From: a virus
Taxonomy: Duplodnaviria > Caudoviricetes
IMG/VR virus record: IMGVR_UViG_3300048831_000054
Location: 1-62,151 of that record
Length of the DNA stretch: 62,151 nt
Strand: one strand, 5' to 3'
The notes below the pieces were generated by a model that was not told the DNA's origin, made no database searches, and worked only from the letters and a program-made list of their open reading frames with translations. The position numbers were made by a program, and so were the translations under genes. Below, piece after piece: positions 18,396 to 39,310 of this stretch (its first letter is position 1; each line of letters opens with the position of its first letter).

Positions 18396-18935
18396 TTAGA
18401 TCCCCGCTGACAGGTATTCCATTGATGGGAGCTCAAGGATCTTATCTGCGGCCTTGAGTACCTTCGTCGCCTTCTTCCAGTCATCTTTCGTCTGCAGCAT
18501 CAGGGTTCCCTTCTCAAAGTAGGCGTCAACGCCGGCGTCCTTGAGAACTGCCAGCACCTTGCGCTCGTAGCCCTCAGTCAAGGCCCCTTCCTCGATGGCA
18601 GACCCACGCGCGTGGAACTTTGCGCTGTGAGTCAGGTAGTCACGCAGCTCATCAAGAAGATCTTCAAGAGTTCCCCTCTCTTTGTTCTCGGTTTGAGAAG
18701 AGAAGCCCCAGTCACCGTCCTTTGTCTGGTAAACGTGGATCCTCTCATACCCAGGCTGTCCACGCTTTGCCTTGTAGACCACCCGTACGATCCACTCCTC
18801 ACTGGAGTCGTCGTCCTCAGCCGCCATAGGTTCATAGATCTTGACTCCCTTCAGGCCCTTCAGCGCCTTCATGATCTTCACATTTGTGCCGCCGAGCGAG
18901 ATGCGGCTGGCTTCAAAGAGTTCGTTGACCTTCAT
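18396..18935 (-). CDS. Putative internal head protein (two modules)
   Basis: MKVNELFE/A; internal AIEEGALTE/G; TAAATA at 18967-18972 upstream. Confidence 0.7.
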   Translation of the reverse strand: MKVNELFEASRISLGGTNVKIMKALKGLKGVKIYEPMAAEDDDSSEEWIVRVVYKAKRGQPGYERIHVYQTKDGDWGFSSQTENKERGTLEDLLDELRDYLTHSAKFHARGSAIEEGALTEGYERKVLAVLKDAGVDAYFEKGTLMLQTKDDWKKATKVLKAADKILELPSMEYLSAGI

Positions 18936-18972: not shown

Positions 18973-19596
18973 TCACTCGCCACGAACGAGCTTCATAAAG
19001 TGCTGATAGCTCTGGTACTGCTCCAGCAGGTATTCGTGGTTGACGAGGACGACCTCATCGCACAGGAGCATGATCTCCGCGCCGCCCGCAAGCGCGCGGT
19101 CCATGTCAGTCGTCTTCCAGGTGACTTTGTCCAGAAAGTAGGCGGTGATCTCAGGCAGGTCCTCAACCGGCTTGGTGCGCGCCCTGTCACGGATCCACGT
19201 CGACAGCGTCAGCGAGTCGCCAAGCGGCCGGTCCTTCAGCATCGGGTTGTTTGAATAGCCGCCGGCCCAGAAGTACTTGAACTTGCCGACAGGGAAGACG
19301 CAGTGGACCGTGCCGTACGACCTAGCCTGCAGGAAGTGGCTCGTGCAGAAGACGGCCTCAGACCGGAGCCGGGCGCCAAACTTCCTCTCGAACCAGTCAT
19401 CCATTGCCTTGTGCACGTGCGGCTCAGTGTCAACCGGCCTGCGCTGCTTGTTGACTTTCTCGACTCGTACCGAGCTGCCTTTGCCTGTACCGCGCAGCAG
19501 CGGGTCCTCAACATTCATGGCGACGAAGGGCTGGCAACGCTCGGCAACCAGCTTGACGGCGTCAGCTGGTTTGGAAATGAAGTCACGGAAGCGCAT
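18973..19596 (-). CDS. Putative ADP-ribosyltransferase-fold internal protein (paralog A)
   Basis: MRFRDFI; LLRG...FCTS..QARSYG...AEIML. Confidence 0.6.
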   Translation of the reverse strand: MRFRDFISKPADAVKLVAERCQPFVAMNVEDPLLRGTGKGSSVRVEKVNKQRRPVDTEPHVHKAMDDWFERKFGARLRSEAVFCTSHFLQARSYGTVHCVFPVGKFKYFWAGGYSNNPMLKDRPLGDSLTLSTWIRDRARTKPVEDLPEITAYFLDKVTWKTTDMDRALAGGAEIMLLCDEVVLVNHEYLLEQYQSYQHFMKLVRGE

Positions 19597-20144
19597 CAGT
19601 CGGCCCTGTCAGCGTAGGTCCAGAAGTGCATCTGTCCCTTGTTGTTGGTCGTCCACCGGTAGGCCTTGCGCCCGTCCACAGTGATCTCCTCAACGTTAGC
19701 AGGCAGCGTGCCACGGTTCTTCACAGCGAATGGAGCATGGTGGTGCTTGACACCATTGATGACGCGCAGTCCCTCTTCATCCTTGTTCTTGGCCGCCATG
19801 GTGCCAGCGGCAATACCACCGGCCACGAGGCCAGCGATCGCCAGGTCCTTCCAGCCCTCCTCAAGCTGGAACTCATCCTCGTTGTCATGGTAGACGCGGC
19901 AGGTGAGGGTGTTCAGGCGCTGCATCGGGTGCAGGCGCAGGCGCTGCTGCACCTTCTGCGTCAGGTCTGGCTGGAAGCCCTCCTCACGTGGCACGTCCTG
20001 ACAGTCGGCGTGGATGTCAATGCGGTTGTCACCCTTGTCGATGACGTGGTGCACCTTGCACGCGACCAGCTCCTCCTCAGCGATGTGGTGGATCAGGTCC
20101 TCAAACTTCTCGACGGTGCTCTCAAGGAACTGCTTGAACCTCAT
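19596..20144 (-). CDS. Putative internal head protein (two modules)
   Basis: MRFKQFLE/S; internal LEE/GWKDLAIAGLVAGGIAAG hydrophobic segment. Confidence 0.7.
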   Translation of the reverse strand: MRFKQFLESTVEKFEDLIHHIAEEELVACKVHHVIDKGDNRIDIHADCQDVPREEGFQPDLTQKVQQRLRLHPMQRLNTLTCRVYHDNEDEFQLEEGWKDLAIAGLVAGGIAAGTMAAKNKDEEGLRVINGVKHHHAPFAVKNRGTLPANVEEITVDGRKAYRWTTNNKGQMHFWTYADRAD

Positions 20145-20773
20145 TTTCCAAACTCCTTGGCAATTAGCGGCAGCACCTGTTCATTGAAGAAGGGGCTGTC
20201 GTGTTGAAACGCGTAGTAGCTGCTGCAGGACACCATGATCTCATGCCTGGACTTCAGGGCCTCAGGCAGGTCCTTATCTGACCATGAAAAGCCGGTGAGG
20301 TCATTCTGAAAGTGGATCTCGTTGGTTTCCCAGTCCTCGTCCCAGTCATCATCAAGTAGCGGTTCAACGAGGTCACCATAGACGTCCTCAATCTCCTCTG
20401 ACCACACGAACTTGAACTCCCCGATAGGAAACACCACGTGCGTGGGACCAAAGGTGCGAGCAAATATGTCACTGCCAGTGACGAACAGTCCATCGCGCGC
20501 GTTCCACCCAAACCTTCGCTTGAACATCTCGTTCATCGCGTTGTGCACCAGCAGCGGGGTGTCCTTTGGCTTTCGGTACTTGGTGTGCTCAATGATGGCC
20601 CAGCCAGTCTTGGCGGTGCGAGTCGGTGGCATGCCACGAAATGGCACCTTGTAGCTGACGTCCTGCTCCGGGTCCTTGCTCAGTTCTAGCTGCGACAGGC
20701 AGGGGTGGCAGTCCTGGATGAACCGCTTCTCGTCAAACTTGGTCGCCTCAGTGATGAACTGCCTGAACCTCAT
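20141..20773 (-). CDS. Putative ADP-ribosyltransferase-fold internal protein (paralog B)
   Basis: MRFRQFITE/A; PFRG...FVTG..FARTFG...HEIMV. Confidence 0.6.
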   Translation of the reverse strand: MRFRQFITEATKFDEKRFIQDCHPCLSQLELSKDPEQDVSYKVPFRGMPPTRTAKTGWAIIEHTKYRKPKDTPLLVHNAMNEMFKRRFGWNARDGLFVTGSDIFARTFGPTHVVFPIGEFKFVWSEEIEDVYGDLVEPLLDDDWDEDWETNEIHFQNDLTGFSWSDKDLPEALKSRHEIMVSCSSYYAFQHDSPFFNEQVLPLIAKEFGK

Positions 20774-21411
20774 GTCACGTACCCCTCAGCCTTCAGCGTG
20801 GTGAGAAACTCTGGCGAGAAGTCCGTCGCCACTTCAATCAGGTAGTACTTGCCGTCCATGGACTTCAGCATCACCTCATTGCCGGAGGTGGCCGCCCGCT
20901 TGAGGTCAGTGTTGAACTTCCAGTCTATGGTGCTGCCCACCTGCTTGATGAGCTCCTCAATGGCCGCGTCCGTACGGTCCTCGAAGGAGAGGCCTGGCTG
21001 CTTGTGGCGCAGGTCGTTCTTCACGTTGTCGAAGTTGTGCACGAGGTCAACGACGTCCTCTGACCAGAGGTACTTGAATTCACCTACTGGAAAGATGAGG
21101 TACACGACACCGAACTCCTTGATCATCGAGTAGTCAGAGCTCACGAAGATGGCGTCGGACCGCGCCGCCCAGTTGAACTTCTGCCTGAAGATCGCGTCAA
21201 CGGCGTAGTGGACCTCGCGCTTGCTGTCACGCGGGCGGGTGCGCACCACGTGGCTCTTCATTCCCCAGTCATCTGGCCCATTGCTGGAGGCGTGCTTCAG
21301 CAGGTGGTGCGTTGACAGCCCCTTGATCTCGCTTAGGAACGGAGCGCAGTCCTTGAAGAACTTGTCGAAGTTGAACGAGGTGCCCTCAGCCAGGAAGTCC
21401 TTGAACCTCAT
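20770..21411 (-). CDS. Putative ADP-ribosyltransferase-fold internal protein (paralog C)
   Basis: MRFKDFLAE/G; LLKH...FVSS...EFG...NEVML. Confidence 0.55.
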   Translation of the reverse strand: MRFKDFLAEGTSFNFDKFFKDCAPFLSEIKGLSTHHLLKHASSNGPDDWGMKSHVVRTRPRDSKREVHYAVDAIFRQKFNWAARSDAIFVSSDYSMIKEFGVVYLIFPVGEFKYLWSEDVVDLVHNFDNVKNDLRHKQPGLSFEDRTDAAIEELIKQVGSTIDWKFNTDLKRAATSGNEVMLKSMDGKYYLIEVATDFSPEFLTTLKAEGYVT

Positions 21412-22139
21412 GACTTGTACCAGCCCTCTGTCTTCTTGCGGAGCTGCTCCTCGGGCATGATGGTCGGCACTAGGTACTTGCTGCCTTGCTTCCGCAGCTT
21501 GTCAAGCACCTGCCTACCGACCGGGTTGCTCACTGGCGCCGCGTAGAAGCCCTGCACCTTGCGGTAGGCGTCGAGCAGGAGGTCGTCTGTCAGCTCGTTG
21601 TCGTCGTTCTTCAGCACCTTGAAGAAGTCAAACTTGCCCTGAAAGTAGCGCTGGTCGGCCGCCGTCTGCTCGTGCACCTGCCGGATGAAGTCCTCATCGA
21701 TCACGCGGCCCACCTTCTGCGCGCGCTCATTCGCGCGGCGGATGGAGGTCTCAAGTGACGTGTCAACGAAGATCATGCCGACGTCGTAGCCCAGCGACTC
21801 GAGGATGCCGGTGCGGTGCAGGATGTTGGAGACGTCGTTGGACGTACCGTCAATGAAGAGCGGCAGCATGCCATTGAGGTTCGAGTACAGCGCGCCGCTC
21901 GTCATGCGCTGCGCCGCCTCCTTGAAGAAGGGCCAGTTCTCTGACGTCACGGCCCGCTTGAACTTCCTGGCGAGAAACTCGGAGGCGCGGTCAGTGTTGA
22001 CGACCCGCGGCTGCACGTCGCCAGCCAGGCGAGAGACCGTGTAGCTCTTGCCGGAGCCGGGCTCACCTGTCACGAAGATGGCCTTGAACAGGCCAGCGTC
22101 ATTGATCGACTCGTCTAGAAACTGTCTGAATGTTTTCAT
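21408..22139 (-). CDS. Zeta-toxin/AAA_33-like P-loop kinase with capsid-targeting-like leader
   Basis: MKTFRQFLDE/S; GEPGSGKS, FIDGT, LGYDVGMIFVDTSLETSIRRANER. Confidence 0.78.
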   Translation of the reverse strand: MKTFRQFLDESINDAGLFKAIFVTGEPGSGKSYTVSRLAGDVQPRVVNTDRASEFLARKFKRAVTSENWPFFKEAAQRMTSGALYSNLNGMLPLFIDGTSNDVSNILHRTGILESLGYDVGMIFVDTSLETSIRRANERAQKVGRVIDEDFIRQVHEQTAADQRYFQGKFDFFKVLKNDDNELTDDLLLDAYRKVQGFYAAPVSNPVGRQVLDKLRKQGSKYLVPTIMPEEQLRKKTEGWYKS

Positions 22140-23131
22140 TTGTCAAACACGAATCCCAAGTTACCCTTCAGCCGGCTTCCTACCTTTATACCAGGTTCCT
22201 GCAAGATCTTGTAAAACGTGTCTACTGAGATGCCAACGCACTGTCCTGAGAACCAGGCCTCACCCATTAACCTGAGCTCACCGGGCAGCTGCACTGAAAG
22301 TCGAAGCACTTTCGGATCCATATAGAAGTCAGCAATGACATTCAGACGGCGAGAGCGGTTATCTCGCAGCAGCGCCAGCAACTTACTGCCAGTCGGATTG
22401 ATTGACTGATTGACAGCGCGTCTAGCCAGCTTCATATCCATCTTGGTCTCAGCGTTGCGAGATAAGATGTTTCTCATGCTGCCACGGGTGCTTGCCTTGT
22501 TGTAGGCATCATCGACGTCATCTATGTTTCCAAGATCAAAGTTGTCAATCATTGAGTAAATGATTGCCTCTGGAGACTTTTCCGCCAGCGCAGCATTGAT
22601 GCGCGCTGCGCTGATGTACTTACTCTGCTTGTCTGGCTTTATGCCTAAATCGTACAGCGCGTCTCTTAGGAAACTATCAAAGTACTCAATATCCATGCTG
22701 CGCGTCAAGTTTTTATTGATGAAGTCATCTTCTCTTGAGACTGCCACTGGCGTTCCGTCAAAAGGCAGCATCACATACAAGTTTTGCCAGCTGTGTGAAA
22801 ATTGCCTCGCGTAGTGCATGTCTGATGAGCAGATGAATGACGCAGATCGTTTTGGGACTCCCTTGAGGTTGCTTGAGATGTCCATTGCCAGTTGGTAGAG
22901 GTTGCTGCTGTCTTTTGAAGTGCGTAGCGCGGCTGTGCTATCAAACACCATGACGCTTGATCCCGGTGACTGCTTGAACCCGCGAAACAGCACATTGCTG
23001 CTGGCAACATCACTTAGCGACTTGCGACAATGCTCATTTAGCAGCTCAATGCCACGCTTGACATTGACCTTTGACACCTTCCACTTTGAGGTGATCACTG
23101 TGGCCTCTGCTAGAAACTGCCTGAAGTTCAT
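22136..23131 (-). CDS. Putative ADP-ribosyltransferase-fold internal protein (paralog D)
   Basis: MNFRQFLAE/A; LFRG...PKRSASFICSS..YARQF...GEAWF. Confidence 0.6.
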   Translation of the reverse strand: MNFRQFLAEATVITSKWKVSKVNVKRGIELLNEHCRKSLSDVASSNVLFRGFKQSPGSSVMVFDSTAALRTSKDSSNLYQLAMDISSNLKGVPKRSASFICSSDMHYARQFSHSWQNLYVMLPFDGTPVAVSREDDFINKNLTRSMDIEYFDSFLRDALYDLGIKPDKQSKYISAARINAALAEKSPEAIIYSMIDNFDLGNIDDVDDAYNKASTRGSMRNILSRNAETKMDMKLARRAVNQSINPTGSKLLALLRDNRSRRLNVIADFYMDPKVLRLSVQLPGELRLMGEAWFSGQCVGISVDTFYKILQEPGIKVGSRLKGNLGFVFDK

Positions 23132-23586
23132 TTCGACTTGTCCACCTGCGCGTCATCGACCTGGATCATTCGCAGCAGCTCATTGCGGTCGGCCACGATC
23201 AGGTTGTTGGTTGTCTTGTTGCCGCTGCCGAAGGGCACAAACGTGCTTGCGCGCTTGCGCTCGATCTTGATCTTGGCACGGCTGTTCGCGGCGTTCAACG
23301 CGATGTTGAGGTAGTTGGCGGCGACCTCGGCGTTGCGGGCGGCGTAGCGCGGCTCGACCATCTCGGTCAGCGCAGTCTGGTTCTCAAAGGCGCCCATGGC
23401 AGCGTCGTAGACGTCATCGATCTTCTTCTCGATGATGATGTCCTCCTCGTCCTTCTGAGTGGCCTCTGCGACCGTGGCGCTCACCTCAGCCGTCATCGCG
23501 TACTGCTGCTCAATGTCAATGCTTGAGCTGCCTGACTCGATGTTCAGGACGTCCTCGAGCGGGTGCTCAATCTTGATCTTGCTCAT
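23128..23586 (-). CDS. Terminase small subunit-like protein
   Basis: Helical core PRYAARNAEVAANYL and C-terminal TTNNLIVADRNELL, resembling gp16-family proteins. Confidence 0.6.
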   Translation of the reverse strand: MSKIKIEHPLEDVLNIESGSSSIDIEQQYAMTAEVSATVAEATQKDEEDIIIEKKIDDVYDAAMGAFENQTALTEMVEPRYAARNAEVAANYLNIALNAANSRAKIKIERKRASTFVPFGSGNKTTNNLIVADRNELLRMIQVDDAQVDKSK

Positions 23587-24038
23587 GCTCTCTTCCTTGG
23601 CCTTCTTGGCTGCTTGGGCGCCTGCTTGAACAGGCTCGCCTCTGTGATGACTCGAAACTTCATGCCGTGCTGGCGGGCAAACAGGTCAGCCGCCTTCCAC
23701 TTGGCGTCATTGATGATCAGTGACAGCTTGTCATAGTCTGTCATGTTGGCGCGCTGCACTGATTCCTTCAGCGGCTTGATCTCAATGATCTCCTTCTGCA
23801 CGGCGCCGGCCTTGTCACGGTACACCACGATGAAGTCAGGGTAGTAGTAGTGCACCCTCGCGTCGGTCGGCTTCAGGTATGGGATCTTCAGCTCCTCGCT
23901 GCCCCACTTCAGCACCGCCTCAGACGCGTCGAAGAACTTCATGGCGCGCACCTCCCACGCCGACCTGAAGAAGATCTTCGTGGGGTCTCCCAGGTACTTG
24001 TCTGGGAACTTAGGTAGGAACCGTCCGCGGGCTGCCAT
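23583..24038 (-). CDS. gp4: Head completion nuclease (gp4/TnsA-like)
   Basis: KYLGD..FRSAWE, WGSEE..IPY, YYPDF, IEIKP, N.AKW.AA, ITE. Confidence 0.9.
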   Translation of the reverse strand: MAARGRFLPKFPDKYLGDPTKIFFRSAWEVRAMKFFDASEAVLKWGSEELKIPYLKPTDARVHYYYPDFIVVYRDKAGAVQKEIIEIKPLKESVQRANMTDYDKLSLIINDAKWKAADLFARQHGMKFRVITEASLFKQAPKQPRRPRKRA

Positions 24039-24041
24039 GGC

Positions 24042-25352
24042 TTATGGGAACGTCCCCGTCGGCGAGCCGCCGGTGCTCGAGTCCTTGACAGGGGCCGGAG
24101 GCGCGGTGCCAAAGACGGCGCCAGTGCTGAAGATGCTCTTCGTGGCGCTGAACAGCGACTTCTGCGCCTGCGTTGCCAGGCCCTGCCCAACGCGCGAGAG
24201 CTCACCCGCGACGATCGTGCCGCCCGGCGTCTTGCCGAGCGTCTTGAGCAGGAAGTTTGAGACCGACTGGTTGGCGGCGCGGATGGCCTGGTTGCCGATC
24301 ATCTCCGTCGCCTTCTGTGCGAAGTTGCCGAACAGCGACTGGCCACCAGGGCTGGCCGTCTCATTGCGGTAGACGGACGAGTCGTAGTTGCCGGCCTCTG
24401 ACAGGATGTCTTTGCCCTCCATCACCGGCGCGGTGTTGGCGAGGGTCGCCTGCTGGGCGTACGACATGTGCAGCGCGTCAAAGTTGAATGACAGCGACAG
24501 GTTGCTTGGACCACCACCGCTCGAGTAGTCGAGGTCATCCATGTTGATGTTGGTGATGCGTGGGTTGATGAAGTCGAAGTGAACGACCTTCACCCAGCTC
24601 TTTGGGTCTGAGTACCACGAGCCGCGTTCCACGAAGATCTGGCTGATGCGGATGCGGGTGAGTGGCTGGTTAGCCACCCCGCTGGAACTTGCGGGAATTG
24701 CCTGCAGCCCGCCACCGTCCAGGCCACCAAACGGCGGCGTGAACTCCATGCCACGGCGGTCAAAGCTCTGCACCGCCGCGTCGGTCACCGGCCGAGAGAT
24801 CGGCTGGTAGATCATGCGGTAGATGTTGGCGAAGTCCAGCGCGCGGTTACCGACGTCGTCTGTCAGCGTCATGCTGAGCTCGCGGTGCTTGATGCGCGTG
24901 AGCACGTGCGTCCGGTAGTTGTACATGTTCACCTCCTCGTACTCAAAGTCGACCTGTGGGCGGTCGATCTGAGTCACCATGAAGGTGAGGTTCTCCTCAA
25001 AGTCACGCGTCGTGACGTTGGTCCCGAACTGCTGGATGTACTCGTTCAGCGCCGGGTGAAAGGTAAAGCTGACCTTGAACAGGAACTTGAGCTTCGGGTC
25101 GAAATCGACCTGAAAGGCCTCAGTCAGGGCGGCGGCATAGCGGGTGGAGTCGCTGATGCGCGTCTGCGGGTCCTGCTGCGCGATGACGGTCTGCGCGTCG
25201 GTAGGGCCCGCGCCTGGTGGGTTCGTCTGGCCAAAGATGCTGCCCAGGGCGCCAGAGGCGAGGCCGCCGATGGCCGCGCCGAATGCGGCAAAGGCCTGCT
25301 GCTCAAGGGCGACGCCTGTGCTCTTGACAATGCCTGAGATGTCTGGGCTCAC
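24042..25352 (-). CDS. Tail-tube-fold protein (tube initiator/baseplate-like)
   Basis: PKLKFLFKV, IDRPQVDFEYEEVNMYN, DDLDYS parallel the tube protein at 26117. Confidence 0.65.
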   Translation of the reverse strand: MSPDISGIVKSTGVALEQQAFAAFGAAIGGLASGALGSIFGQTNPPGAGPTDAQTVIAQQDPQTRISDSTRYAAALTEAFQVDFDPKLKFLFKVSFTFHPALNEYIQQFGTNVTTRDFEENLTFMVTQIDRPQVDFEYEEVNMYNYRTHVLTRIKHRELSMTLTDDVGNRALDFANIYRMIYQPISRPVTDAAVQSFDRRGMEFTPPFGGLDGGGLQAIPASSSGVANQPLTRIRISQIFVERGSWYSDPKSWVKVVHFDFINPRITNINMDDLDYSSGGGPSNLSLSFNFDALHMSYAQQATLANTAPVMEGKDILSEAGNYDSSVYRNETASPGGQSLFGNFAQKATEMIGNQAIRAANQSVSNFLLKTLGKTPGGTIVAGELSRVGQGLATQAQKSLFSATKSIFSTGAVFGTAPPAPVKDSSTGGSPTGTFP

Positions 25353-25395
25353 GTGTGATCCTAAGGTGCGCGTTGCCTATTTATCAGGTCGCCAA

Positions 25396-25427
25396 GCAAA
25401 AAGAAAGGAAGCCGAAGCTTCCTTTCT
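25396..25427 (-). terminator. Rho-independent terminator with cUUCGg loop
   Basis: agaaaggaagc-ttcg-gcttcctttct-tttttg. Confidence 0.85.
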
Positions 25428-25444
25428 GTTGAGCGTCAGGCTGA

Positions 25445-26101
25445 TTAGGCCGCGATGACGGCTGCCGTGTCGTTCGACACTGCGGTGTCGGCACCAGCTG
25501 CGTTCGTCGCAGTGACCTCGACGTGCAGGACCGCACCAACGTCGCCGACAACTGGCGTGTAGGTGTTGGCCGTGGCGCCACCGATGGCGACGTCGTCGGC
25601 AAACCACTGGTACGTGTAGACGATGGTGCCACCACCTGTCCATGTGCCGTTGCTGACTGACAGTTCCTGACCTTCCTGCGCGGTGCCGGTGATGGCAGGC
25701 GCGACGGTGTTGGCTGGAACGTCGATGACGGCGGCGGTACCAGCAGATGTTGCCGAGGCAGCGCCGTCGACGTTCGTCGCGGTGACGGTACAGGTGATGA
25801 CGGCGCCGAGGTCGGCGAGTACCAGCGTGTACGTGCTGGCTGTCGCACCGCCGATCGCAACACCACCGCGCTTCCACGCGTACGTGTAGCTGATGCCACC
25901 GCCGGTCCAAGTGCCCGTCGTGACGGACAGCTGCTGACCGACCCACGCGCTGCCTGAGATCACAGGCAGGGCAGTGTTGGCAGGAACGCCAGCAGCGGCG
26001 TCGAAGTCGGTGCGCCAGTCCTCACGGGCATCCTCCCTCCAGTCCTCTTTCCAGTCCTTGCGAACTCCAGCGACGGAGTCAAGCATTGTCGCGATAGTCA
26101 T
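25445..26101 (-). CDS. Virion decoration protein with two tandem Ig-like domains
   Basis: Two repeats PANT..P.I.G....GQ.LSV..GTWTGG...Y.Y.W......IGGAT..TYT. Confidence 0.8.
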   Translation of the reverse strand: MTIATMLDSVAGVRKDWKEDWREDAREDWRTDFDAAAGVPANTALPVISGSAWVGQQLSVTTGTWTGGGISYTYAWKRGGVAIGGATASTYTLVLADLGAVITCTVTATNVDGAASATSAGTAAVIDVPANTVAPAITGTAQEGQELSVSNGTWTGGGTIVYTYQWFADDVAIGGATANTYTPVVGDVGAVLHVEVTATNAAGADTAVSNDTAAVIAA

Positions 26102-26116
26102 TTCGTGCGTCTCCTA

Positions 26117-26707
26117 TTAGAGGTTGCCGTTGAGGGCAGTGCCGTAGCCCGCACCCGTCAGCTCGTGGCGAGCGTGATCGAAGCGGATCGACAGTTGAAT
26201 GGTAACTGCGTCTGAGGAGCTGTAATCAAGGTCGCCCCAGTTCGCAGATGCGATGTAGCAGCCCTCAAGCTTCCATGTCTCGACGACGGCCTCGTTGCCG
26301 TCAAGCTGCTCGAGGATCGTGCCGAACTTGTAGTCACTGCCGGTCGCAGCGCTGTTCAGCCACTGGCCAGGAAGGTCAGCACCGATGAGGCGCTTCTGCG
26401 TCTCAAGCTGTCCCTGCACGGCGTACGATGCCAGGCCGGTAATGTCGTCCTCGATCGTGAGGTTGATCGGCTGGTACGTGTGCTTGCCGGCAACGTAGGC
26501 CACGCTGTTGTAGCGGTGAATCTCAACCTCTTGGAACTCGACGTTCGGGCGGTCAATCATTGTGGCTTGTCTTGTGATCTCACGCGAGCTCGCTCCTGGT
26601 ACCAGGCGGGCCAGACCAACGAAGGTCACCTGCCAGCGGTACTTCTGCTTTGGCATCAAGACACCGAAGCCGGCGCCCGGGATACCCATGTTTGAAAGTG
26701 TGGCCAT
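26117..26707 (-). CDS. gp19: Tail tube protein
   Basis: MPKQKYRW.V.F, DRPNVEF, YVAGKHTYQPI, WKLEGC, GDLDYS, IRFDHA; downstream of sheath. Confidence 0.85.
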   Translation of the reverse strand: MATLSNMGIPGAGFGVLMPKQKYRWQVTFVGLARLVPGASSREITRQATMIDRPNVEFQEVEIHRYNSVAYVAGKHTYQPINLTIEDDITGLASYAVQGQLETQKRLIGADLPGQWLNSAATGSDYKFGTILEQLDGNEAVVETWKLEGCYIASANWGDLDYSSSDAVTIQLSIRFDHARHELTGAGYGTALNGNL

Positions 26708-26791
26708 TGTTTCTCCTTTTACTTGCCTGTGGTGTCAAGAGCGTGTCTTACACCGTTTTATTTATCGGGTCAACCTAATTTCCGGTCCCGG

Positions 26792-27148
26792 TCACACGAG
26801 GTTCTCAAGCTTGTACTTTGCCTTGTACACCATGGAGATCAGCGTGTCCCAGTCATTGAGCAGGTGGGTGTCAGCGGGATTGAAGGAGGCCTTGGCCCCC
26901 TCCGCAAAGGTGGCAAGCTCACGCACGAAGGTGACCGCGTCCTGGCGGTTGAATGGCTGGACGACGGCGCTCGTCAGGTCAAGCAGGCCGTACTTGCCCT
27001 GGTACGTCTCAGCGAGCGCGTCGGCCTGGGCAAGGATGCCATCATACAGGTCACCAAGGGCAAGGTGGGCGGCGAATGAGCGGGTCTTCAGGTGCAGCTC
27101 GTGAGCTACGTCCCTGGCCTGAAACAACGTGGCGATGAGATCTTTCAT
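26792..27148 (-). CDS. Ferritin/Dps-like four-helix protein
   Basis: AHELHL.TRSFAAHLALGDLYD...D.LAE.YQG, YKLENL. Confidence 0.7.
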   Translation of the reverse strand: MKDLIATLFQARDVAHELHLKTRSFAAHLALGDLYDGILAQADALAETYQGKYGLLDLTSAVVQPFNRQDAVTFVRELATFAEGAKASFNPADTHLLNDWDTLISMVYKAKYKLENLV

Positions 27149-27186
27149 GTCAGTTGGTAGGGCCTTGCGGCCCTACCATCCGTTGG

Positions 27187-29031
27187 TTAGCCCGGCATCT
27201 GCGCGCCAGTTGCCAGCACGCGGATTGGGATGTAGATGAATTCAGCCGCCTTGACTGGCTTGATCGCGACGTCGAGGTACATCTCGTTACGGTCAATACG
27301 GTCTGGCGTGTTGTTCGACTCATCGCACAGCGTGGCAAAGTCGTACAGACCGCGCTTGGCCATGATGTCGTTCAGGAAGCCATCTGCCGACGCCTTGAAG
27401 TTGTCGCGCGTGATCTTGTCGTTCGGTTCGAAGACGAACGGGAACGAGTTCTTGCGCAGCTGACGCTTCATGTACATCACCAGGCGCATTACGTTGATGC
27501 GATCAAGCGCTGAGGCAGCCGGCGCCGAGGTCTTCTGACCCCAGACCAGCAGGCCGCGGCCTGGGAAGAACACGATCGGGTTGATGTTCTTGAAGAACTC
27601 GTACAGGTCGTCACGCTGGCCTTGGTTCAGGTTGGCGACGTTGAACGTCGTTGCCTGACCCAGCGTGCCTGAGACGTAGCCGACCTCAGCGACACCCGAG
27701 ACCACGCCGCGCCGAGCGCCGGCTGGGGCGAACCAGACGTACGACTGGTTGTCGCTGTAGGCGTAGGTGCGGGCGGCGATACCCGACGGGGCGCAGCAGA
27801 CGTTGCGGCCGTCGAGGTTGGAGGCGAGGCCCCATGGGTAGTAGTACGCGACGTTCGTTGACGACTCGCGCTCCGAGGAGAGCGCCCAGACGGCGACCTG
27901 CTCAGGGGTCTTGGTGACCGGCGTGTCGGCGATGACGAAGGCCTCGTCCTGCACAGTGTTGCTCAGGGCGATCAGCTCGTCGACGACCTCTGGGTAACCA
28001 GGGCAGAGGATCAGGTTGTACTCGTAGATCTCCGAGCGGACTTCCTGGTTGCTGTTGATCTCCGACTGCAGGGCCGTCACGATCGAGACGCGCTTGGCAG
28101 CGTCGTTCGCGCCCAGCGGGTTGTTGATGTTGACGTTGGCGAACGTGATGGTGAACTCATCACCGGCCACAAAGGCAGTGGTGCCAGCGGTGATCATGAA
28201 GCTGATGTAGTCGCTGACGTAGGCCGTGCCGACGATGCCCGGCAGGATGGTGCCAGTGATCGAGCCGGTGACGGTGAAGTTGGTCGCGTTCGTGAACTCG
28301 ACGGTCCAGACCTCAGCGATGGCGTCCTCACCTGGCAGCAGGCTCGTCATCGTGCCGTTGCCGGTGGCTGGGACTGTCGTCGGCGCGTAGACCAGGTCGA
28401 ACTCGAAGTAGTCGCCGGCGACGAACGGGGTCGAGCCAGAGGTGACCGTGAAGTTCACCTTGGTTGACGTGAAAGCCACGCCGACGGTGCCGTTGCCAAT
28501 GATGCCGGAGACCGAACCTTGGACGGTGAACTCGGTGGCAGACGTGAAGATGATGTCGATGCTCTCCAGCCGCACGAACGGCGAGGAGGCGGTCGGCGTG
28601 GTCATCGTGCCGTTGCCGGCGGCGGTCAGGACCGGGGTCGTCGCCACTGGAACGCCAGCGCCGATGAATGTGACGGCGGCGTCTGACAGGTCAACATTGG
28701 CACGGACAACGTAGGCGCGGTTGCCGATGCCGAGGAACTGGTTGAGGGCGAACAGGCCGTACTCATTGCGGGCGTCGCCGTGGAACTCATTGCCACCACC
28801 GTCGCGCCAGAAGTAAGGGATGCCGTACAGCTGCGTGCTCTGGCCGATGGAGGTAACCGTGCGGACGACCGAGTGCTCGTTCGTGCCAGCGGCCGGGGTG
28901 ATGCCATTCGGCTGCGTCTTGCCAGCGCGCGTCGCGACGAAGAACAGCGGGACAGTTGGGGCCGCTGCTGGGATGTAGAACGACTCGTCGATGACCGTTA
29001 CGCTGACGCCTGGGCTGACTAGTGTTGCCAT
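27187..29031 (-). CDS. gp18: Tail sheath protein
   Basis: LVSPGVSVTVIDES, WFAPAG.RRG, INPI, WGQKT, LDRINV.RL, FEPND, PVKAAEFIYI. Confidence 0.95.
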   Translation of the reverse strand: MATLVSPGVSVTVIDESFYIPAAAPTVPLFFVATRAGKTQPNGITPAAGTNEHSVVRTVTSIGQSTQLYGIPYFWRDGGGNEFHGDARNEYGLFALNQFLGIGNRAYVVRANVDLSDAAVTFIGAGVPVATTPVLTAAGNGTMTTPTASSPFVRLESIDIIFTSATEFTVQGSVSGIIGNGTVGVAFTSTKVNFTVTSGSTPFVAGDYFEFDLVYAPTTVPATGNGTMTSLLPGEDAIAEVWTVEFTNATNFTVTGSITGTILPGIVGTAYVSDYISFMITAGTTAFVAGDEFTITFANVNINNPLGANDAAKRVSIVTALQSEINSNQEVRSEIYEYNLILCPGYPEVVDELIALSNTVQDEAFVIADTPVTKTPEQVAVWALSSERESSTNVAYYYPWGLASNLDGRNVCCAPSGIAARTYAYSDNQSYVWFAPAGARRGVVSGVAEVGYVSGTLGQATTFNVANLNQGQRDDLYEFFKNINPIVFFPGRGLLVWGQKTSAPAASALDRINVMRLVMYMKRQLRKNSFPFVFEPNDKITRDNFKASADGFLNDIMAKRGLYDFATLCDESNNTPDRIDRNEMYLDVAIKPVKAAEFIYIPIRVLATGAQMPG

Positions 29032-29138
29032 TGAATTTCTCCTTGTCTCTTAGTTGTACCGGTTCTAAACCATCACGCCGGTGTTTGGACAGGGATATTT
29101 ACGGGAGTGACAATTTTTCCGGTCAAATTTCAAGCAAC

Positions 29139-29924
29139 TTACGACTCGTGCTGGGGCAGGCCGGGCAGCTTGAAGTTCGGGTCGGTTGAGTCCATCTCGA
29201 AGTTGCCGTAGATGATCTCGAACGGCACCATGTTGCCGTTCTCGTCGAACTCATTGACGTTGAAGCCCTTGAGGTCACCGATCTGCACGAAGATCTTGCG
29301 CACCATCTCGTCCTTGATGTCGACGGGCGCCGAGATCCAGATCGGGATGCTGAACGAGAGGGACCAGGTGATGATCCGGCGGTCGCCGCCTGGCGCGTAG
29401 TTCTCCTCATTGCTGATGCCGATCAGCTCAACCGTCGTCAGCTTGGACCAGTCGAAGGCAGCGTCAGACGTCTGGATCTGCAGGCCAGGGTCAAACAGCA
29501 TCAGGATCTGTTCAATGATCTGGTGCAGCTGGTTGGTGTTTGACGCGTAGATGGACAGCTCGACCGTCATCTGGTACGGGATCGGCATGACGCGCGTGAC
29601 CGTGCGCAGGTCCTCAGGGTAGACGCCCCCGCGTGGCAGGAACACGCGCTTGTCAACGACTCCCGTGCCCTTCCTGTACGGAGAGAGGTCGATGCTGGAG
29701 ATGTGGGCGGCCATGATGGGCAGCACGAACGGCTTGTTCTGCGTGTTGCCGGCCTGCAGCGCGGCCACAACGCGATCCTTGCTGCCAACGGTGATCGGGA
29801 CGGTGATGTACTCGGGAACGTCGCACTCACCGACTCCGGTCTGCACCCGCAGCCCGCTGAAGATGTTGCAGAACTGCAGCAGGAAGCTGCGCAGCTGGCC
29901 CTCGTAGAAGTAGAAGTCAATCAT
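29139..29924 (-). CDS. gp15: Tail sheath stabilizer/terminator
   Basis: YFYEGQLRSFLLQF..IFS, MPIPYQMTVEL, QIIEQILMLFDP; true start ATG 29924. Confidence 0.82.
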   Translation of the reverse strand: MIDFYFYEGQLRSFLLQFCNIFSGLRVQTGVGECDVPEYITVPITVGSKDRVVAALQAGNTQNKPFVLPIMAAHISSIDLSPYRKGTGVVDKRVFLPRGGVYPEDLRTVTRVMPIPYQMTVELSIYASNTNQLHQIIEQILMLFDPGLQIQTSDAAFDWSKLTTVELIGISNEENYAPGGDRRIITWSLSFSIPIWISAPVDIKDEMVRKIFVQIGDLKGFNVNEFDENGNMVPFEIIYGNFEMDSTDPNFKLPGLPQHES

Positions 29925-30609
29925 TGTCGTCCTTTGGTGGTGTGAGCTTGGTGCTACCAACGTACTTGAGGTGTGAGGTATTGAACCACACCGTAGACTC
30001 AACATCCCAGCCGTAGGTGAATGAATCGGAGTCACTGTAGCCGCTGTGGTGAGCAGCGTCAAAGTACTTGGCCAGCAGGTCCCATGGGAAGTGCACGCGC
30101 AGGTAAGACGAGCCAGAGGGCTCGTCTTTTCCGACCAGGTCCTGGTCCTGCGCCCAAAAGTAGAACTGCTCGGCGTACGACAGGTCAAAGACCCGCGGCT
30201 CGCCCTCAATTTTAAGCAGGTAACCTTCACTTGGGACCCACGACTTGAAGTTCTGCCGCATGAACTTCAGCCAGTCGCTCCAGTGCGTGCCGCCTGGGCC
30301 CTTTCTCGCGGTGCTCGTCCAGAGGCCCTGGTTTGGCTTGTTGCCACCGGCGCGTGGCACGTAGTTGACGAGGACCGGTGGCCGGTCCTCAGTGACCTCC
30401 TTCGCGGCAGTGTAGTAGCGCCAATCTCGCTGGCGCTTTAGCCGCTCGGCAGGGTCTATCCTCTTCGGAACAAACAGCTGCAGCCTGTCAATTTCAAACA
30501 GGTGCCACGTCAGGTGGTTCTGCATGTCCCTGAGCGTGTCAAAGGCTCGCCCACCTGATAGAGTTTCAGGGGCCTTTTTTCTTGCCTCGAGGAACGTCTT
30601 GAACCGCAT
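29917..30609 (-). CDS. Putative internal head protein
   Basis: MRFKTFLE/A leader; NKPNQGLWTS...YFDA...GWDVESTVWFN. Confidence 0.65.
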   Translation of the reverse strand: MRFKTFLEARKKAPETLSGGRAFDTLRDMQNHLTWHLFEIDRLQLFVPKRIDPAERLKRQRDWRYYTAAKEVTEDRPPVLVNYVPRAGGNKPNQGLWTSTARKGPGGTHWSDWLKFMRQNFKSWVPSEGYLLKIEGEPRVFDLSYAEQFYFWAQDQDLVGKDEPSGSSYLRVHFPWDLLAKYFDAAHHSGYSDSDSFTYGWDVESTVWFNTSHLKYVGSTKLTPPKDDND

Positions 30610-30617
30610 GTCTCAGC

Positions 30618-30683
30618 CTAGGGTGTCGGCGATGTGCTTCCGTAGTCCACTTTTGGCAGTTGGAAGATCTCTGTCAGTTTCAT
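30618..30683 (-). CDS. 21-aa mini-ORF resembling a capsid-targeting leader
   Basis: GGAG RBS, then MKLTEIFQLPKVDYGSTSPTP*. Confidence 0.35.
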   Translation of the reverse strand: MKLTEIFQLPKVDYGSTSPTP

Positions 30684-30693
30684 TGCTATCTCC

Positions 30694-32577
30694 TTAGATC
30701 TGCTTCTTTCCTAGCCCGACGCGGGTGCTCGAGTCTAGGATCTTGCGTACGGACGGCTTCGTCGATGAGTATTGGCCCCGCCGGTCGGTCTCGACGTATA
30801 GCCAGCGGTTCTTGTAGGCCGAGTAGCGGTACAGGCGAGGGGCGATCTCAAGGTTCTGCGGGTAGTACAGGCGGAAGTAGTCGCCATCATTGACGGTGGT
30901 GACGTCAGGCAGGCGGCTGCCCTCGCCGTACGGCTCGCCGTTAGGTGGCAGGCCGTCCTCAATGTAGTTGCCCTGCGTGCCGTCAAATGGCGCAGCTGGT
31001 GGGTTGCCGTGCTCATTGACCGGCAGCTGCACTCGCGGCAGCACGGCGCCGATGGTAGACGTCTGGTCGTCTGAGCCGACCTCAGGCACCGCCTTCGCCG
31101 CCTGCTTGGCGATCTCCTCGCTGATGGTCAGCGGCGTCGTGTCGATCTGGTCACCCACGCCGTCGGCGAGGATGCTGTCAGTCGTGAGGTACTTCTGCGT
31201 GTCAATGGTGCCGAAGATGTCGCGCGTCTCCTGCGACGGTAGCGCCTGCTGCGCGCTGAAGCGGTATAGCGTTGGGCGCCACGCCGTGGCGTAGCCCTCT
31301 GCCGCCCAGCCAGTGTCGGTCACCTCAAGGAACTTCCTGACGGGCAGGAGGTTCTGATCGTACTGCAGGTCTGGGCGCACCTCGATGATGTCACCAGTGA
31401 TGATTGGCCGGCCAAGCACCGCCACCATCGTGTTGAACGAGCAGGTGAAGGAGTACTGGTCCAGGATCTGCAGGCCAAACTTGCTGAGGTCAGAGATCGA
31501 GTCAATAGGTGAGTACTGGCACTTCAGCTGCAGCGAGACCGGCGCGTAGTCACGGTCACGGTTCTCATTGAAGAACAGGTCCTGGATGTCGTTGATGTTC
31601 GACGGCGCGCTGTCGAGCACGTCAAGGGCCATCACCTCCCAGCTGCCAGTGCCGGTGAAGAGCGTCGGTGAGATGCGAACGGCCTTGGCGAGCAGCGGTG
31701 ACTGGAACTTCAGGAAGGTGGAGTTGATCGTCTGCTGCAGGTTGAATACGCCCTGGCGCCGCCACACGTAGTTCAGCGGCACCGTGAAGAGGTCACCCGC
31801 GACGAAGGGGACCGTTCCGTTGGTGATCGTGAATTCAACGAGCGGGGTTGAGAACTTCACGCCGACCGTGGCGACGCCGTAGGCCTGCAGCGGGCGGCCG
31901 GGGATGGTGGCGGCGACGAGGAACGTGGTAGGCGACGTGGCCATCACGCTGACGACTGCCTGAGTCGCGCTGAGGCCGAGCTGGTCGATGGTCAGCGTGC
32001 CGTCACCAGCGCCGCTGAACTGGATGGTGCCGACCTCAGTCTCCCCGTCGGCCGTGTCGATCCTGACCTGGCGCGCGTACGCGTTGACGTTGTTTGCCTG
32101 AGTGATGGCGATGCCGGCGATCTCCTGCCAGTTGGGCCGAGGCGCCTCGTTCTGCGGGTACTGCGTGTCGTCGAAGTACTTGAAGCCGAAGTCAAGGGCG
32201 ATGAAGCTGCCAAGCACACCAGGCCCAGTACCGGCGGACGCCCAGCCAGCGCCGCCCAGCTCATCAAGCCCACGACCAGGGAGGAAGGGGCTCGAGAACA
32301 GCGTGCCGTTGGCCAGCACCGAGCCCTGCCCCTGCTCGTGGACGCCGAGCAGTTTGTAGACGTTGATCGGCGCGCCGTTGATGTTGAGCACCTCAGCAAC
32401 GTAGGATTCCTGGTTGGCGAGCTCCTGGTTGGAGCACTCGTCGTCCTTCCCTGAGATCTGCCACTCACCGACGCACGTCTCAACGGGCGTGTATGGTGGC
32501 GGTAGGACTGGAGGCGGGTTGTTCGGGTCGTTGAGACTTCCGGCACCGGCGTCGCAGGCTAGAGTTGGTAGCGGCAT
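30694..32577 (-). CDS. Neck protein, gp14-like, extended
   Basis: INVYKLLG, IQDLFFNENRDRDY, DLSKFGL, LGRPIITGDIIE, LEVTD; position between gp13 and gp15. Confidence 0.75.
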   Translation of the reverse strand: MPLPTLACDAGAGSLNDPNNPPPVLPPPYTPVETCVGEWQISGKDDECSNQELANQESYVAEVLNINGAPINVYKLLGVHEQGQGSVLANGTLFSSPFLPGRGLDELGGAGWASAGTGPGVLGSFIALDFGFKYFDDTQYPQNEAPRPNWQEIAGIAITQANNVNAYARQVRIDTADGETEVGTIQFSGAGDGTLTIDQLGLSATQAVVSVMATSPTTFLVAATIPGRPLQAYGVATVGVKFSTPLVEFTITNGTVPFVAGDLFTVPLNYVWRRQGVFNLQQTINSTFLKFQSPLLAKAVRISPTLFTGTGSWEVMALDVLDSAPSNINDIQDLFFNENRDRDYAPVSLQLKCQYSPIDSISDLSKFGLQILDQYSFTCSFNTMVAVLGRPIITGDIIEVRPDLQYDQNLLPVRKFLEVTDTGWAAEGYATAWRPTLYRFSAQQALPSQETRDIFGTIDTQKYLTTDSILADGVGDQIDTTPLTISEEIAKQAAKAVPEVGSDDQTSTIGAVLPRVQLPVNEHGNPPAAPFDGTQGNYIEDGLPPNGEPYGEGSRLPDVTTVNDGDYFRLYYPQNLEIAPRLYRYSAYKNRWLYVETDRRGQYSSTKPSVRKILDSSTRVGLGKKQI

Positions 32578-33485
32578 TAGAGTCCCAGCTTCTTGTTGAG
32601 GTCGTACTTGTCGAAGAGGTCGGCAATCGGGTCGGTGTTCTCGGCGTGTGTGTACGCCTCAAGATTGACCAGCCCGACATCACCCTGCACCCACACCTCC
32701 CGCTTGAAAGGAACGTTTAGATTCAGCCCTGTCTGGATCTCGAAGTTGTGCTTCACTGGGTTGATCACCCTCGTGAAGTACGCGTACATGTTCTTGACGC
32801 CCTGCTGCTCCATCAGCTCGATCAGCTCTGTCAGGCCGTTGACTGAGTTCTCGCGGATGATGAAGGAGCGAAGTTCACCGTCCTCGTCCTGCTCGCGCGC
32901 CTTCTTCAGCTCGGCCTCCATCTTCTCGCGCTGCCTGGACAGGCTCTCAATAGTGACGTCCTGCAGCGCGTCGAGCAGCTCATGTCTCTCCGTCGGGTGA
33001 TCAATGCGCAGCAGCTTGAAGGCCGTGCTGAGGTCATCCATCAGGCCGTCAAGTGAGTCCACGCTCGGCCTGAATGAGTTCCAGAGGTCGTCACCTGGGC
33101 AGATCGCCACCTTCGCGTTGTCAGGGATCAGCACGAAGTGCACGGTGCCAAATGACTCCGCCACCTTGGGGCTGCTGCTGCAGATATAGGACTTTGACCG
33201 CTTCGGGTAGCCCTTCCACACCTCGGAGTTGTCCATCCACAGGGTGTAGTAGTTCTCCGTGTTGGCGGAGACGCGCGTGAAGTCATTGGTGTTCTTGCGC
33301 CCAAAGAGGACGTCGCTTTCCATGCCGCGAAATATCGCGCTGTGCTTGGCGTTCTGCAGGTACCCGCGGCAGTTCGCCAGCGCCCAGTCGGCCAGCTCCT
33401 GAGCGTCTACGCGCGTGACGTTGTAGTCACCGCGGCCGTCAGTGTGGTACTGGTTGATGGACTCAATGAACTGTCTAAAGCGCAT
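32577..33485 (-). CDS. Putative ADP-ribosyltransferase-fold internal protein (paralog E)
   Basis: MRFRQFIE/S; IFRG...YPKRSKSYICSSS..AESFG...REVWV. Confidence 0.62.
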   Translation of the reverse strand: MRFRQFIESINQYHTDGRGDYNVTRVDAQELADWALANCRGYLQNAKHSAIFRGMESDVLFGRKNTNDFTRVSANTENYYTLWMDNSEVWKGYPKRSKSYICSSSPKVAESFGTVHFVLIPDNAKVAICPGDDLWNSFRPSVDSLDGLMDDLSTAFKLLRIDHPTERHELLDALQDVTIESLSRQREKMEAELKKAREQDEDGELRSFIIRENSVNGLTELIELMEQQGVKNMYAYFTRVINPVKHNFEIQTGLNLNVPFKREVWVQGDVGLVNLEAYTHAENTDPIADLFDKYDLNKKLGL

Positions 33486-36390: not shown

Positions 36391-36434
36391 GCCATTCTCC
36401 AGGATAAATAAGCCACCGAGAACAGGAGGCGCAC

Positions 36435-37064: not shown

Positions 37065-37065
37065 T

Positions 37066-38038: not shown

Positions 38039-38044
38039 GCAGGT

Positions 38045-38075
38045 ATTATATCACACTGCTGAACCAGGGTGAAAC
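38045..38075 (-). promoter_or_regulatory. Sigma70-type promoter
   Basis: GTTTCAC...GTGTGA-TATAAT. Confidence 0.65.
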
Positions 38076-39283: not shown

Positions 39284-39310
39284 GAAACTACCCCCACGTT
39301 GGTGAGGTAT

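Follow-up and report, generated by a model that had tools for sequence, protein, structure and literature searches.

In phage T4, the first ten residues of the internal protein IPIII are enough for prohead targeting, tag residues 4 and 7 matter in targeting and residues 8 and 10 in processing, gp21 cleaves after L/I-X-E, and Alt is packaged and processed as the internal proteins are [according to PMC9026906]. ADP-ribosyltransferases (ARTs) have a split beta-sheet with three-stranded halves 4-5-2 and 1-3-6 and flanking helices; the triad that defines them sits on strands 1, 2, and 5, and three clades are recognized, R-[ST]-E among them [as described in PMC7955679]. A survey of jumbo phages reports ARTs as common in such phages and proposes that ART-PolyVal is injected with the DNA [PMC7824862]. 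Here we describe five paralogous open reading frames (ORFs), P1 to P5, in IMG/VR record IMGVR_UViG_3300048831_000054 (62,151 bases, all of it analyzed and hereafter called the window; CheckV completeness estimate 19%). Judged by its sequence, the window is a 62-kb piece of the genome of a jumbo myophage close to RsoM2USA, a phage of Ralstonia: its tail sheath is closest to that of RsoM2USA (58.7% identity), followed at ~52–53% by those of Stenotrophomonas phages CM1 and RAS14 and Xanthomonas phages XacN1 and Xoo-sp13. We read the family of P1 to P5 as essentially phage-only, head-internal or ejection proteins with a strongly diverged R-[ST]-E ART-like domain, most likely modifiers of the host that use nicotinamide adenine dinucleotide (NAD), and as a whole we hold this reading to be evenly balanced between right and wrong.

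All five ORFs were found on the minus strand (Table 1); P1, P2, and P3 form a short group (207, 210, and 213 amino acids) and P4 and P5 a long group (331 and 302 amino acids). A preliminary description, made from the sequence alone, had listed these ORFs with their motifs, had divided them into two paralogous subfamilies and had given the longer size class a helical insertion; the first point was borne out by the translations, the second by BLASTP and by hhalign between the group alignments, the third by the predicted models. BLASTP gave expectation values (E) of 5e-16 to 2e-24 among P1, P2, and P3 and of 1e-12 for P4 against P5, and weak values across the groups (P2–P4, 5e-4; P1–P5, 3e-3). 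The long-group alignment comprised 146 sequences drawn from the matches of an exhaustive profile search, the short-group alignment 91 sequences from 56 viral or metagenome loci and from protein collections. Compared with each other by hhalign, the two gave a probability of 99.1% (E 7.5e-19) over 132 columns spanning the leader and the N-terminal core, so that the link between the groups is real despite the weak BLASTP values. Both profiles match 81 of the 111 family ORFs in the 56 loci; the short profile matches P5 at 8.5e-9 and the long profile P1 at 5.1e-7, and together they find exactly five members in the window. Orthologues of P2 show 70–74% identity.

A word-indexed homologue search gave few relatives, and an exhaustive profile search was used instead, which with the long group returned 3857 representative clusters at E ≤ 1e-3, of which 1435 also pass E ≤ 1e-30. 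Atlas clusters of the family are 94–100% viral, and a scan of one genome per species across 185,579 species gave four loci only, all of them contigs of metagenome-assembled genomes with tandem arrays. The family is very large and essentially viral. Tandem arrays are the norm (five members each in loci L022 and L065, nine consecutive genes in Agrobacterium phage Atu_ph07, three in RsoM2USA), and mean column identity in the family alignments is ~13–17%. One Atu_ph07 member (AUZ94866, gp54; positions 41844–43316, 490 amino acids) holds two family domains in tandem, residues 8–220 and 255–486; arrays therefore grow also via in-frame fusion of neighbors. The family has no Pfam entry, the PHROGs that it matches (phrog_11975, phrog_12810) are unnamed and of unknown function, and its members are labeled "hypothetical" in sequence records. 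A full-text literature search from 2018 onward, combining the themes of ART, jumbo phage, virion, ejection, and paralogy, returned no paper on this family, and the main text of the jumbo-phage survey names none of the Atu_ph07 family accessions [PMC7824862].

The N termini point to packaging. Eight ORFs of the window start with M-x-F-[RK]-x-F-[IL]-x(0-1)-E, namely P2 to P5, an adjoining kinase ORF, and three unrelated ORFs. The core pattern F[RK]x[FIL][LIV]x(0-1)[ED] occurs seven times in the 19,078 residues of the 72 ORFs of a greedy gene set, every time from residue 3 or 4 (the eighth leader ORF, 29917–30609, lies outside that set), a placement that as a sequence count is far from chance. 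Because the leader stands on unrelated ORFs too, it is taken as a general tag rather than as a family motif; in the fetched loci it is found on 64 of 221 ORFs of at least 120 amino acids, 16 of these 64 being non-family, and the strict form at residue 1 occurs in 37 of the 91 short and 77 of the 146 long sequences. The further leader-bearing non-family ORFs of the window, with strict or looser leaders, probably encode additional packaged or prohead-core proteins. In the T4 record, ipII and ipIII start with MKTYQEFIAE and ipI with MKTFKEFTST; the kinase leader MKTFRQFLDE has the length of MKTYQEFIAE and is identical to it at residues 1–3, 7, and 10. P2 (FITE), P3 (FLAE), P4 (FLAE), and the kinase (FLDE) fit the L/I-x-E rule, the window tags being mostly one residue shorter than those of T4. 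A T4-type prohead maturation protease gene lies in the window, beside the portal gene and near the major head protein gene. The leader was also considered as a signal peptide, which was rejected, as it is charged, amphipathic, and a match to the T4 tag.

The virion proteome of Atu_ph07 bears on the same point. The tblastn match of P5 in this phage (E 6e-26) lies within AUZ94870, and hidden Markov models (HMMs) of the family match AUZ94866 to AUZ94874 and AUZ95167. The computed masses of these ten members (56.49, 29.65, 30.93, 30.16, 29.20, 31.19, 29.55, 29.96, 29.61, and 30.60 kDa) equal those listed for gp54 to gp62 and gp408 (PMC6102473, Supplementary Table S5); for AUZ95166, a non-member next to gp408, 39.66 kDa was computed versus 39.67 listed for gp407. 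In that table gp54 to gp62 and gp408 are listed as virion proteins, with 3–15 unique peptides each [PMC6102473]. The Atu_ph07 homologues are virion proteins, then, with a leader of lineage-specific form, M-[RK]-W-x-Q-L-[TI]-E. Virion proteomics of RsoM2USA, which covered ten gel bands only, includes no family members among them. The packaging into virions surmised in the preliminary description is supported by the leader resembling the T4 capsid-targeting sequence, by the T4-type prohead protease, and by the mass spectrometry of the ten Atu_ph07 homologues, and we regard it as very probable that the window proteins are packaged in the head.

Alternatively, the packaged proteins could be non-catalytic, whether core, inner-body, or DNA-organizing components or ejection helpers; they would then be pseudoenzymes with a degenerate ART-like framework, in which conserved charged residues would serve folding or scaffold binding. 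Such a role is suggested by the many paralogues per genome, all of them in the virion in Atu_ph07 and with moderate peptide counts, and by their resemblance to paralogous head-protein families of other giant phages [as described in PMC9026906]. The spread of isoelectric points argues against uniform DNA-condensing proteins, and as a separate candidate, uniform basic DNA-binding internal proteins were rejected on the values found (4.3–9.8, median ~5.9). The case is taken up again with the conserved residues below.

For the fold, the AlphaFold model of P5 has a predicted local distance difference test score (pLDDT) of 94.0 and a predicted template modeling score (pTM) of 0.88. In fold searches with it, every PDB match covered the helical hairpin only (residues ~150–240), and therefore the P1 model (pLDDT 88.4, pTM 0.84) was used instead. 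The top Foldseek rows for P1 are OspC3 (E 0.15), then DarT and poly(ADP-ribose) polymerase (PARP) chains. On a second look at the 20 candidate rows, at least 13 are ART-fold by title or by the SCOP class quoted in PMC3000352. Three rows are cyclic nucleotide monophosphate (cNMP)-binding domains. Three or four more of the 20 are presumably ART-fold as well (TreTu, TreX, EcPltA, anti-CRISPR 6kyf). In a scan of 48,161 chains with P1, ART-fold chains fill the first seven rows, with 83–128 aligned residues spanning the whole domain, and make up 20 of the best 50 rows, one more being uncertain; of the remaining rows among these 50, most align ~50–70 residues, largely helical, and many are TetR-type regulators. 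Among Atlas models, the neighbors of P1 include Arr-ms and ART-PolyVal, those of P5 DUF2441, ART-PolyVal (twice), DRAT, and a Scabin-like protein, all of these ART-type rows having template modeling (TM) scores below 0.5 by query. A BFVD search with the P1 model returned uncharacterized family members and no known phage ART among them. The structural neighbors lie mostly on the side of diphtheria toxin, PARP, Arr, DarT, and Tpt1. The grouping with cholera-toxin-like enzymes and Alt proposed in the preliminary description is not supported, the best structural neighbors lying outside it. As to the ART fold proposed there, the P1 matches are weak and ART-dominated, with none in the PDB at E ≤ 1e-3. 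An ART-like fold is, on these weak matches, likely.

The nearest named cluster by language-model features is DUF2441 (0.82–0.84), counted as a lead only. BC2332-like is a family in the SCOP ADP-ribosylation superfamily [PMC3000352], and BC2332 itself (PDB 2aua), one of the nearest described systems, was matched to toxin active sites by ProFunc; the Pfam ART clan includes DUF2441 (PF10386) and DUF3990 [PMC7955679]. Six DUF2441 sequences were collected, three from 401 gammaproteobacterial genomes and three from viral contigs (two distinct), and the five different ones were compared. By eye, the DUF2441 motifs FYH, PSR..C.W, and EV.FEG are colinear with those of the family. A search with PF10386 finds nothing in the window.

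A fold unrelated to ART, either a new alpha/beta fold or a cNMP-like nucleotide-binding module, for example a binder of a host signal, would account for the missing sequence link to the ART clan. Against it stand the seven leading ART rows of the chain scan, which cover the whole domain while other rows match ~55 helical residues, the agreement of two independent sources of models on ART, and the position of the conserved residues on the three strands of the ART site. In cNMP-binding domains, a Glu lies about ten residues ahead of an Arg; this order is not seen in the family. We consider an unrelated fold improbable.

In the models, R35 of P1 lies within strand 34–37 and R53 of P5 within strand 52–55; T85 and then S86 of P1 stand at the end of strand 82–85, and S103 ends strand 99–103 in P5, a short helix following in both; E174 of P1 is at the start of strand 175–178, and E263 of P5 opens strand 263–267. 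These three strands would correspond to ART strands 1, 2, and 5. The insertion of P5, placed by its model between strand 125–128 and the C-terminal strands 249–274, would correspond to the gap between ART strands 4 and 5. Known ARTs have a target-recognition loop between strands 4 and 5, and the insert, if it is indeed at that position, is therefore a natural place for diversification of targets. A backward count from where the chain-scan alignments end presumably also puts E174 no more than a few residues from the catalytic Glu in each of diphtheria toxin, PARP-1, and DarT; the count ignores gaps and carries little weight.

Conservation at these positions is as follows (counts out of 91 short and 146 long sequences, respectively): strand-1 Arg, 82 and 145; Y, F, or W before it, 73 and 138; strand-2 Ser/Thr, 67 and 138; strand-5 Glu, 90 (one gap) and 146; an Arg just before strand 2, 84 and 146; an Asp after strand 4, 82 and 146. 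The residue after the strand-2 Ser/Thr is Ser or Thr in 117 long sequences and Gly in 59 short ones. Two residues before the Glu, the counts include G 28, K 13, and E 8 in the short group and D 45, N 41, and E 10 in the long group. An extra block, R-x-S-x-N-T-x-N-x-Y, is present in the long group only. Aside from the putative site, a Cys just after the leader (C21 in P1) occurs in all 91 short and in 79 of the 146 long sequences, and a second Cys (C179 in P1), five residues past the conserved Glu, in 73 of the 91 short ones; a disulfide or a metal site are possibilities for this pair.

Several results weigh against the ART reading and against tag processing. Foldseek finds nothing in the PDB at E ≤ 1e-3 with the P1 or P5 model, and the Atlas list for P1 has five cNMP-binding rows, as many as ART rows (one for P5). 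Pfam gives no significant ART-clan match in the five proteins or the 146 long members (E ≤ 0.01), nor among the 91 short members searched at E ≤ 10, where a single DRAT hit at 0.061 appears in one member. NCBIfam finds no ART; nor does a PDB profile search, whose best match has E 0.2, to helical hemagglutinin stalks. Aligned by hhalign with the C-terminal 260 amino acids of T4 Alt, both profiles reach a probability of 0.3–0.4%, and with DUF2441, full or insert-trimmed and local or global, at most 0.2%; the DUF2441 link was dropped as unsupported because of this result. Recognition of an ART by profile comparison, which the preliminary description had envisaged, thus failed, no Pfam ART model matching any of the 237 members and hhalign to Alt and DUF2441 staying under 1%. 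Within the site, Gly mostly takes the place of the Ser of "STS" among short members, the strand-1 Arg is missing from about 10% of them, P3 included (LLKHA), and no [QE]-x-E motif appears in the consensus of the 91 short or the 146 long sequences. Of the leaders, that of P1 is without Glu (FISK), and P5 has F-I-E in place of L/I-x-E. The R-S-E triad of the preliminary description accordingly holds in part: Arg, Ser/Thr, and Glu do fall on strands equated, weakly, with ART strands 1, 2, and 5, and P3 has no such Arg and the family no [QE]-x-E.

A non-catalytic role in the head gains from two of these points, the lack of a detectable ART sequence signature and the short members without strand-1 Arg. 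It is countered by the Glu kept in 90 of 91 and 146 of 146 sequences and by two Arg and an Asp that are near-invariant, at the low mean column identity of the family; retention at such identity is a pattern typical of an active or ligand site. The fusion or adjacency of the family to a P-loop kinase with an intact Walker A motif also argues against it, and we think such a role rather unlikely. The proteins could alternatively be NAD users that are not protein ARTs, either NAD glycohydrolases or enzymes of the DarT/Tpt1 kind whose substrate is DNA, RNA, or a small molecule, perhaps with the kinase. The [QE]-x-E doublet is common in protein-modifying R-[ST]-E ARTs, and its absence here beside a single Glu favors that possibility, as do the neighbors from the diphtheria toxin/PARP/Arr/DarT/Tpt1 side, which include modifiers of small molecules, DNA, and RNA, and a kinase companion weakly like polynucleotide and tRNA kinases. 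The site residues, however, are R/[ST]/E, not H-Y-E or H-H-h, and ten or more diversified paralogues suit many macromolecular targets better than one small molecule; the possibility is a slight one. NAD-using catalysis as such is plausible, its chances being even or marginally lower.

The companion kinase is zeta-toxin-like, its PF06414 match scoring 44.1 bits versus a cut-off of 22.3. Within the 788 positions of phrog_12810, P4 and P5 match 14–249 and the kinase 261–456 (2e-24). A 778-amino-acid "Zeta toxin domain-containing protein" of Atu_ph07 is matched by the P1 model in BFVD; this protein (AUZ94865) is taken to be gp53, from accession order and the 87-kDa mass and not from sequence, and gp53 is a virion protein with 31 peptides [PMC6102473 Table S5]. 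Leader-bearing kinase homologues stand beside family arrays in seven of the 56 loci at E ≤ 1e-10 (loci L002 and L003 hold identical ORFs), and locus L004 has the gene order of the window (long member, kinase, short member). Since the two are fused in one lineage and adjacent in others, a task shared by kinase and family is suggested. Weak similarities of the kinase are to polynucleotide-kinase and tRNA-kinase families (phrog_505 at 3.5e-5; TIGR03574 at 0.002). Complex prediction runs for P4 with the kinase gave 0.02, 0.33, and 0.00 (median 0.02, mark 0.32), which is evidence neither way.

For the family read as packaged ART-like enzymes, the following course is proposed. Each protein starts with an observed leader, a tag of about nine residues of the T4 capsid-targeting type, which would carry it into the prohead core, where a T4-type prohead protease would probably cut the tag off after Glu. 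The mature protein would be kept with the DNA and enter the cell upon infection. Behind the tag, its domain is predicted to bear an aromatic-Arg pair on strand 1, to close strand 2 with Ser/Thr, and to open strand 5 with a single Glu, with, in addition, an Arg peculiar to the family directly ahead of strand 2 and an Asp past strand 4. The proteins would most likely be NAD-using transferases acting on differing host molecules, protein or nucleic acid, in earliest infection, their target being set by the variable helical stretch inserted between strands 4 and 5, and the co-packaged zeta-like kinase probably being a partner. More broadly, and somewhat tentatively, heads of the RsoM2USA/XacN1/Atu_ph07 type may carry an unrecognized repertoire of ART-like enzymes (five here, at least ten in Atu_ph07), tandem-duplicated, diversified by their inserts, co-delivered with a kinase, and chemically modifying several host targets (defense, transcription, or nucleic acid) before phage expression.

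If so, such phages would have their own equivalent of the effector arsenal of bacteria, and the ART superfamily would gain a new family thousands of members strong. Proteins that enter the cell along with phage DNA are at work ahead of the host defense response, and to our knowledge, besides T4 Alt, the internal proteins of T4, and virion RNA polymerases, few of them are understood. Active ARTs would constitute a large untapped set of host modifiers with diverse targets and possible anti-defense functions, and would explain early host takeover by jumbo phages without Alt-type genes. With the leader as a simple rule, the packaged proteome of such phages could be predicted from sequence; the leader could also in principle load foreign proteins into heads, a use to which the T4 tag has already been put.

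Table 1 Features of the window. Residues are numbered within each protein; aa, amino acids.
Feature	Coordinates	Strand	Remarks
P1, short group	18973-19596	-	207 aa; phrog_11975 at 3.8e-30; short-profile match 2.3e-49; candidate site residues R35 (LLRG), R78, T85/S86 (VFCTS), D122, E174 (AEIML)
P1 leader	19570-19596	-	MRFRDFISK, without Glu
P2, short group	20141-20773	-	210 aa; phrog_11975 at 5.9e-26; short-profile match 1.1e-59; candidate site residues R46 (PFRG), R93, FVTG, D130, E178 (HEIMV)
P2 leader, residues 1-9	20747-20773	-	MRFRQFITE
P3, short group	20770-21411	-	213 aa; phrog_11975 at 2.6e-22; short-profile match 1.4e-52; LLKHA in place of strand-1 Arg-Gly; retains Arg before strand 2, FVSS, Asp, Glu (NEVML)
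P3 leader	21385-21411	-	MRFKDFLAE
P4, long group	22136-23131	-	331 aa; phrog_12810 at 5e-16; long-profile match 1.2e-47; LFRG, R70, PKRSASFICSS, D136, E291 (GEAWF)
P4 leader	23105-23131	-	MNFRQFLAE
P5, long group	32577-33485	-	302 aa; phrog_12810 at 2e-37; long-profile match 1.1e-84; IFRG (R53), R71/S73/T76/N78/Y80, PKRSKSYICSS (R96, S99, S103), D133, E263 (REVWV)
P5 leader	33462-33485	-	MRFRQFIE
P5 helical insertion, residues 145-240	32766-33053	-	From model secondary structure
Zeta-toxin-like P-loop kinase	21408-22139	-	243 aa; Walker A GEPGSGKS; PF06414 at 2.1e-11
Kinase leader	22110-22139	-	MKTFRQFLDE
Non-family ORF inside array	19596-20144	-	182 aa; leader MRFKQFLES; no Pfam/PHROG family
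Unrelated leader ORF	16335-18395	-	MKFREILES; no known family
Unrelated leader ORF	29917-30609	-	MRFKTFLEA; no known family
ORF with looser leader	18396-18935		MKVNELFEA; no known family
ORF with looser leader	16024-16338		MSIIRELLALTE; no known family
ORF with looser leader	44432-44860		MSILKELLD; no known family
Large terminase	13281-14825		T4-type late gene
Head-completion gp4-like protein	23583-24038	-	T4-type late gene
Major head protein	41582-42910	-	T4-type late gene
T4-type prohead maturation protease	45161-45772	-	phrog_207 head maturation protease, 1.2e-52
Run of sugar-/amino-group-modifying enzymes	35455-41491	-	Between neck and major head protein genes
AAA_33 P-loop kinase and HD-domain protein	8906-9586, 9559-10305	-	Overlapping adjacent ORFs; 7e-19 and 2.2e-5
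GIY-YIG-type homing endonuclease	55022-55750	-	phrog_314 at 3.6e-34
SbcC-like gene	55785-57623		Flanks GIY-YIG gene
PDDEXK endonuclease gene	54442-55056		Flanks GIY-YIG gene
DUF5856 protein	26792-27148	-	Small; between tail sheath and tail tube genes
Cytidylyltransferase-like protein	59736-60449	+	PF01467 at 2e-5; phrog_3041

The minus strand carries every gene from ~16 to 50 kb, T4-type late genes included; beyond those in Table 1, the late genes of the window are tail tube, tail sheath, neck protein, and portal. Overlaps of 4 bp join successive genes from the head-completion gene down to the non-family ORF inside the array, the stop of which overlaps the P1 start by 1 bp, and because the genes are chained in this way to the head-completion gene, late co-expression is suggested.

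Elsewhere in the window, the run of modifying enzymes between the neck and major head protein genes comprises an NAD-dependent epimerase, a GNAT acetyltransferase, a "GT4-conflict" glycosyltransferase, a methyltransferase, a weak aminotransferase match, and an Asp/Arg-hydroxylase-like protein, the targets of which might be virion proteins or DNA. The AAA_33 kinase and the HD-domain protein may work as a pair, a polynucleotide kinase with a phosphatase, in repairing RNA or DNA ends. The DUF5856 protein bears the PHROG name "starvation-inducible transcriptional regulator", its gene position being odd for a regulator. PF01467 includes nicotinamide mononucleotide adenylyltransferases, and a tie of the cytidylyltransferase-like protein to NAD supply is conceivable.

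Among described systems, T4 Alt (PF03496) is a head-stored phage protein with gp21-type processing [PMC9026906] that enters the cell with the DNA, as head storage is probable and such entry is proposed here, and shows the same motif order, R / S-T / E, on an ART-like core (LYR and FVSTS in Alt; a predicted core here). It differs in its length, the longest alt ORF having 683 amino acids versus ~210–330 in the small single-domain proteins here, and the family here numbers 5 to 10 or more paralogues in each genome and has no [QE]-x-E. Homology to Alt, ModA, or ModB was rejected: PF03496 recovers T4 Alt, the positive control, at 4.4e-38 and has no match at E ≤ 1 in the window, in RsoM2USA, or in Atu_ph07, in line with the hhalign result. 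The T4 internal proteins IPI, IPII, and IPIII share the N-terminal tag of ~10 residues, with two aromatic or hydrophobic positions and then L/I-x-E, its presence on unrelated proteins of one phage, and a diverse cargo thought to be anti-host. There the cargo is small and unrelated, whereas here a single family has expanded, its putative active site conserved, behind a tag that is mostly one residue shorter and presumed to be cleaved. ART-PolyVal (PF18760) and DUF2441 (PF10386) are viral ART-clan families, common in phages and among the nearest Atlas structures (TM 0.30–0.38 by query). Neither has an HMM match to the family, and ART-PolyVal sits within huge multidomain proteins, whereas the proteins here are free-standing, tagged, and tandemly duplicated. 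The head and inner-body paralogues of phiKZ-like giant phages are likewise numerous in the capsid, where a gp21-related protease cuts them after Glu, and pass into the host on ejection [PMC9026906]; likened here by description, they belong to another lineage, the window phage being T4-related and of the RsoM2USA/XacN1/Atu_ph07 group, and they are not known as ART-like. We therefore regard the family as a strongly diverged and so far undescribed branch of a known superfamily, joined to a known packaging device.

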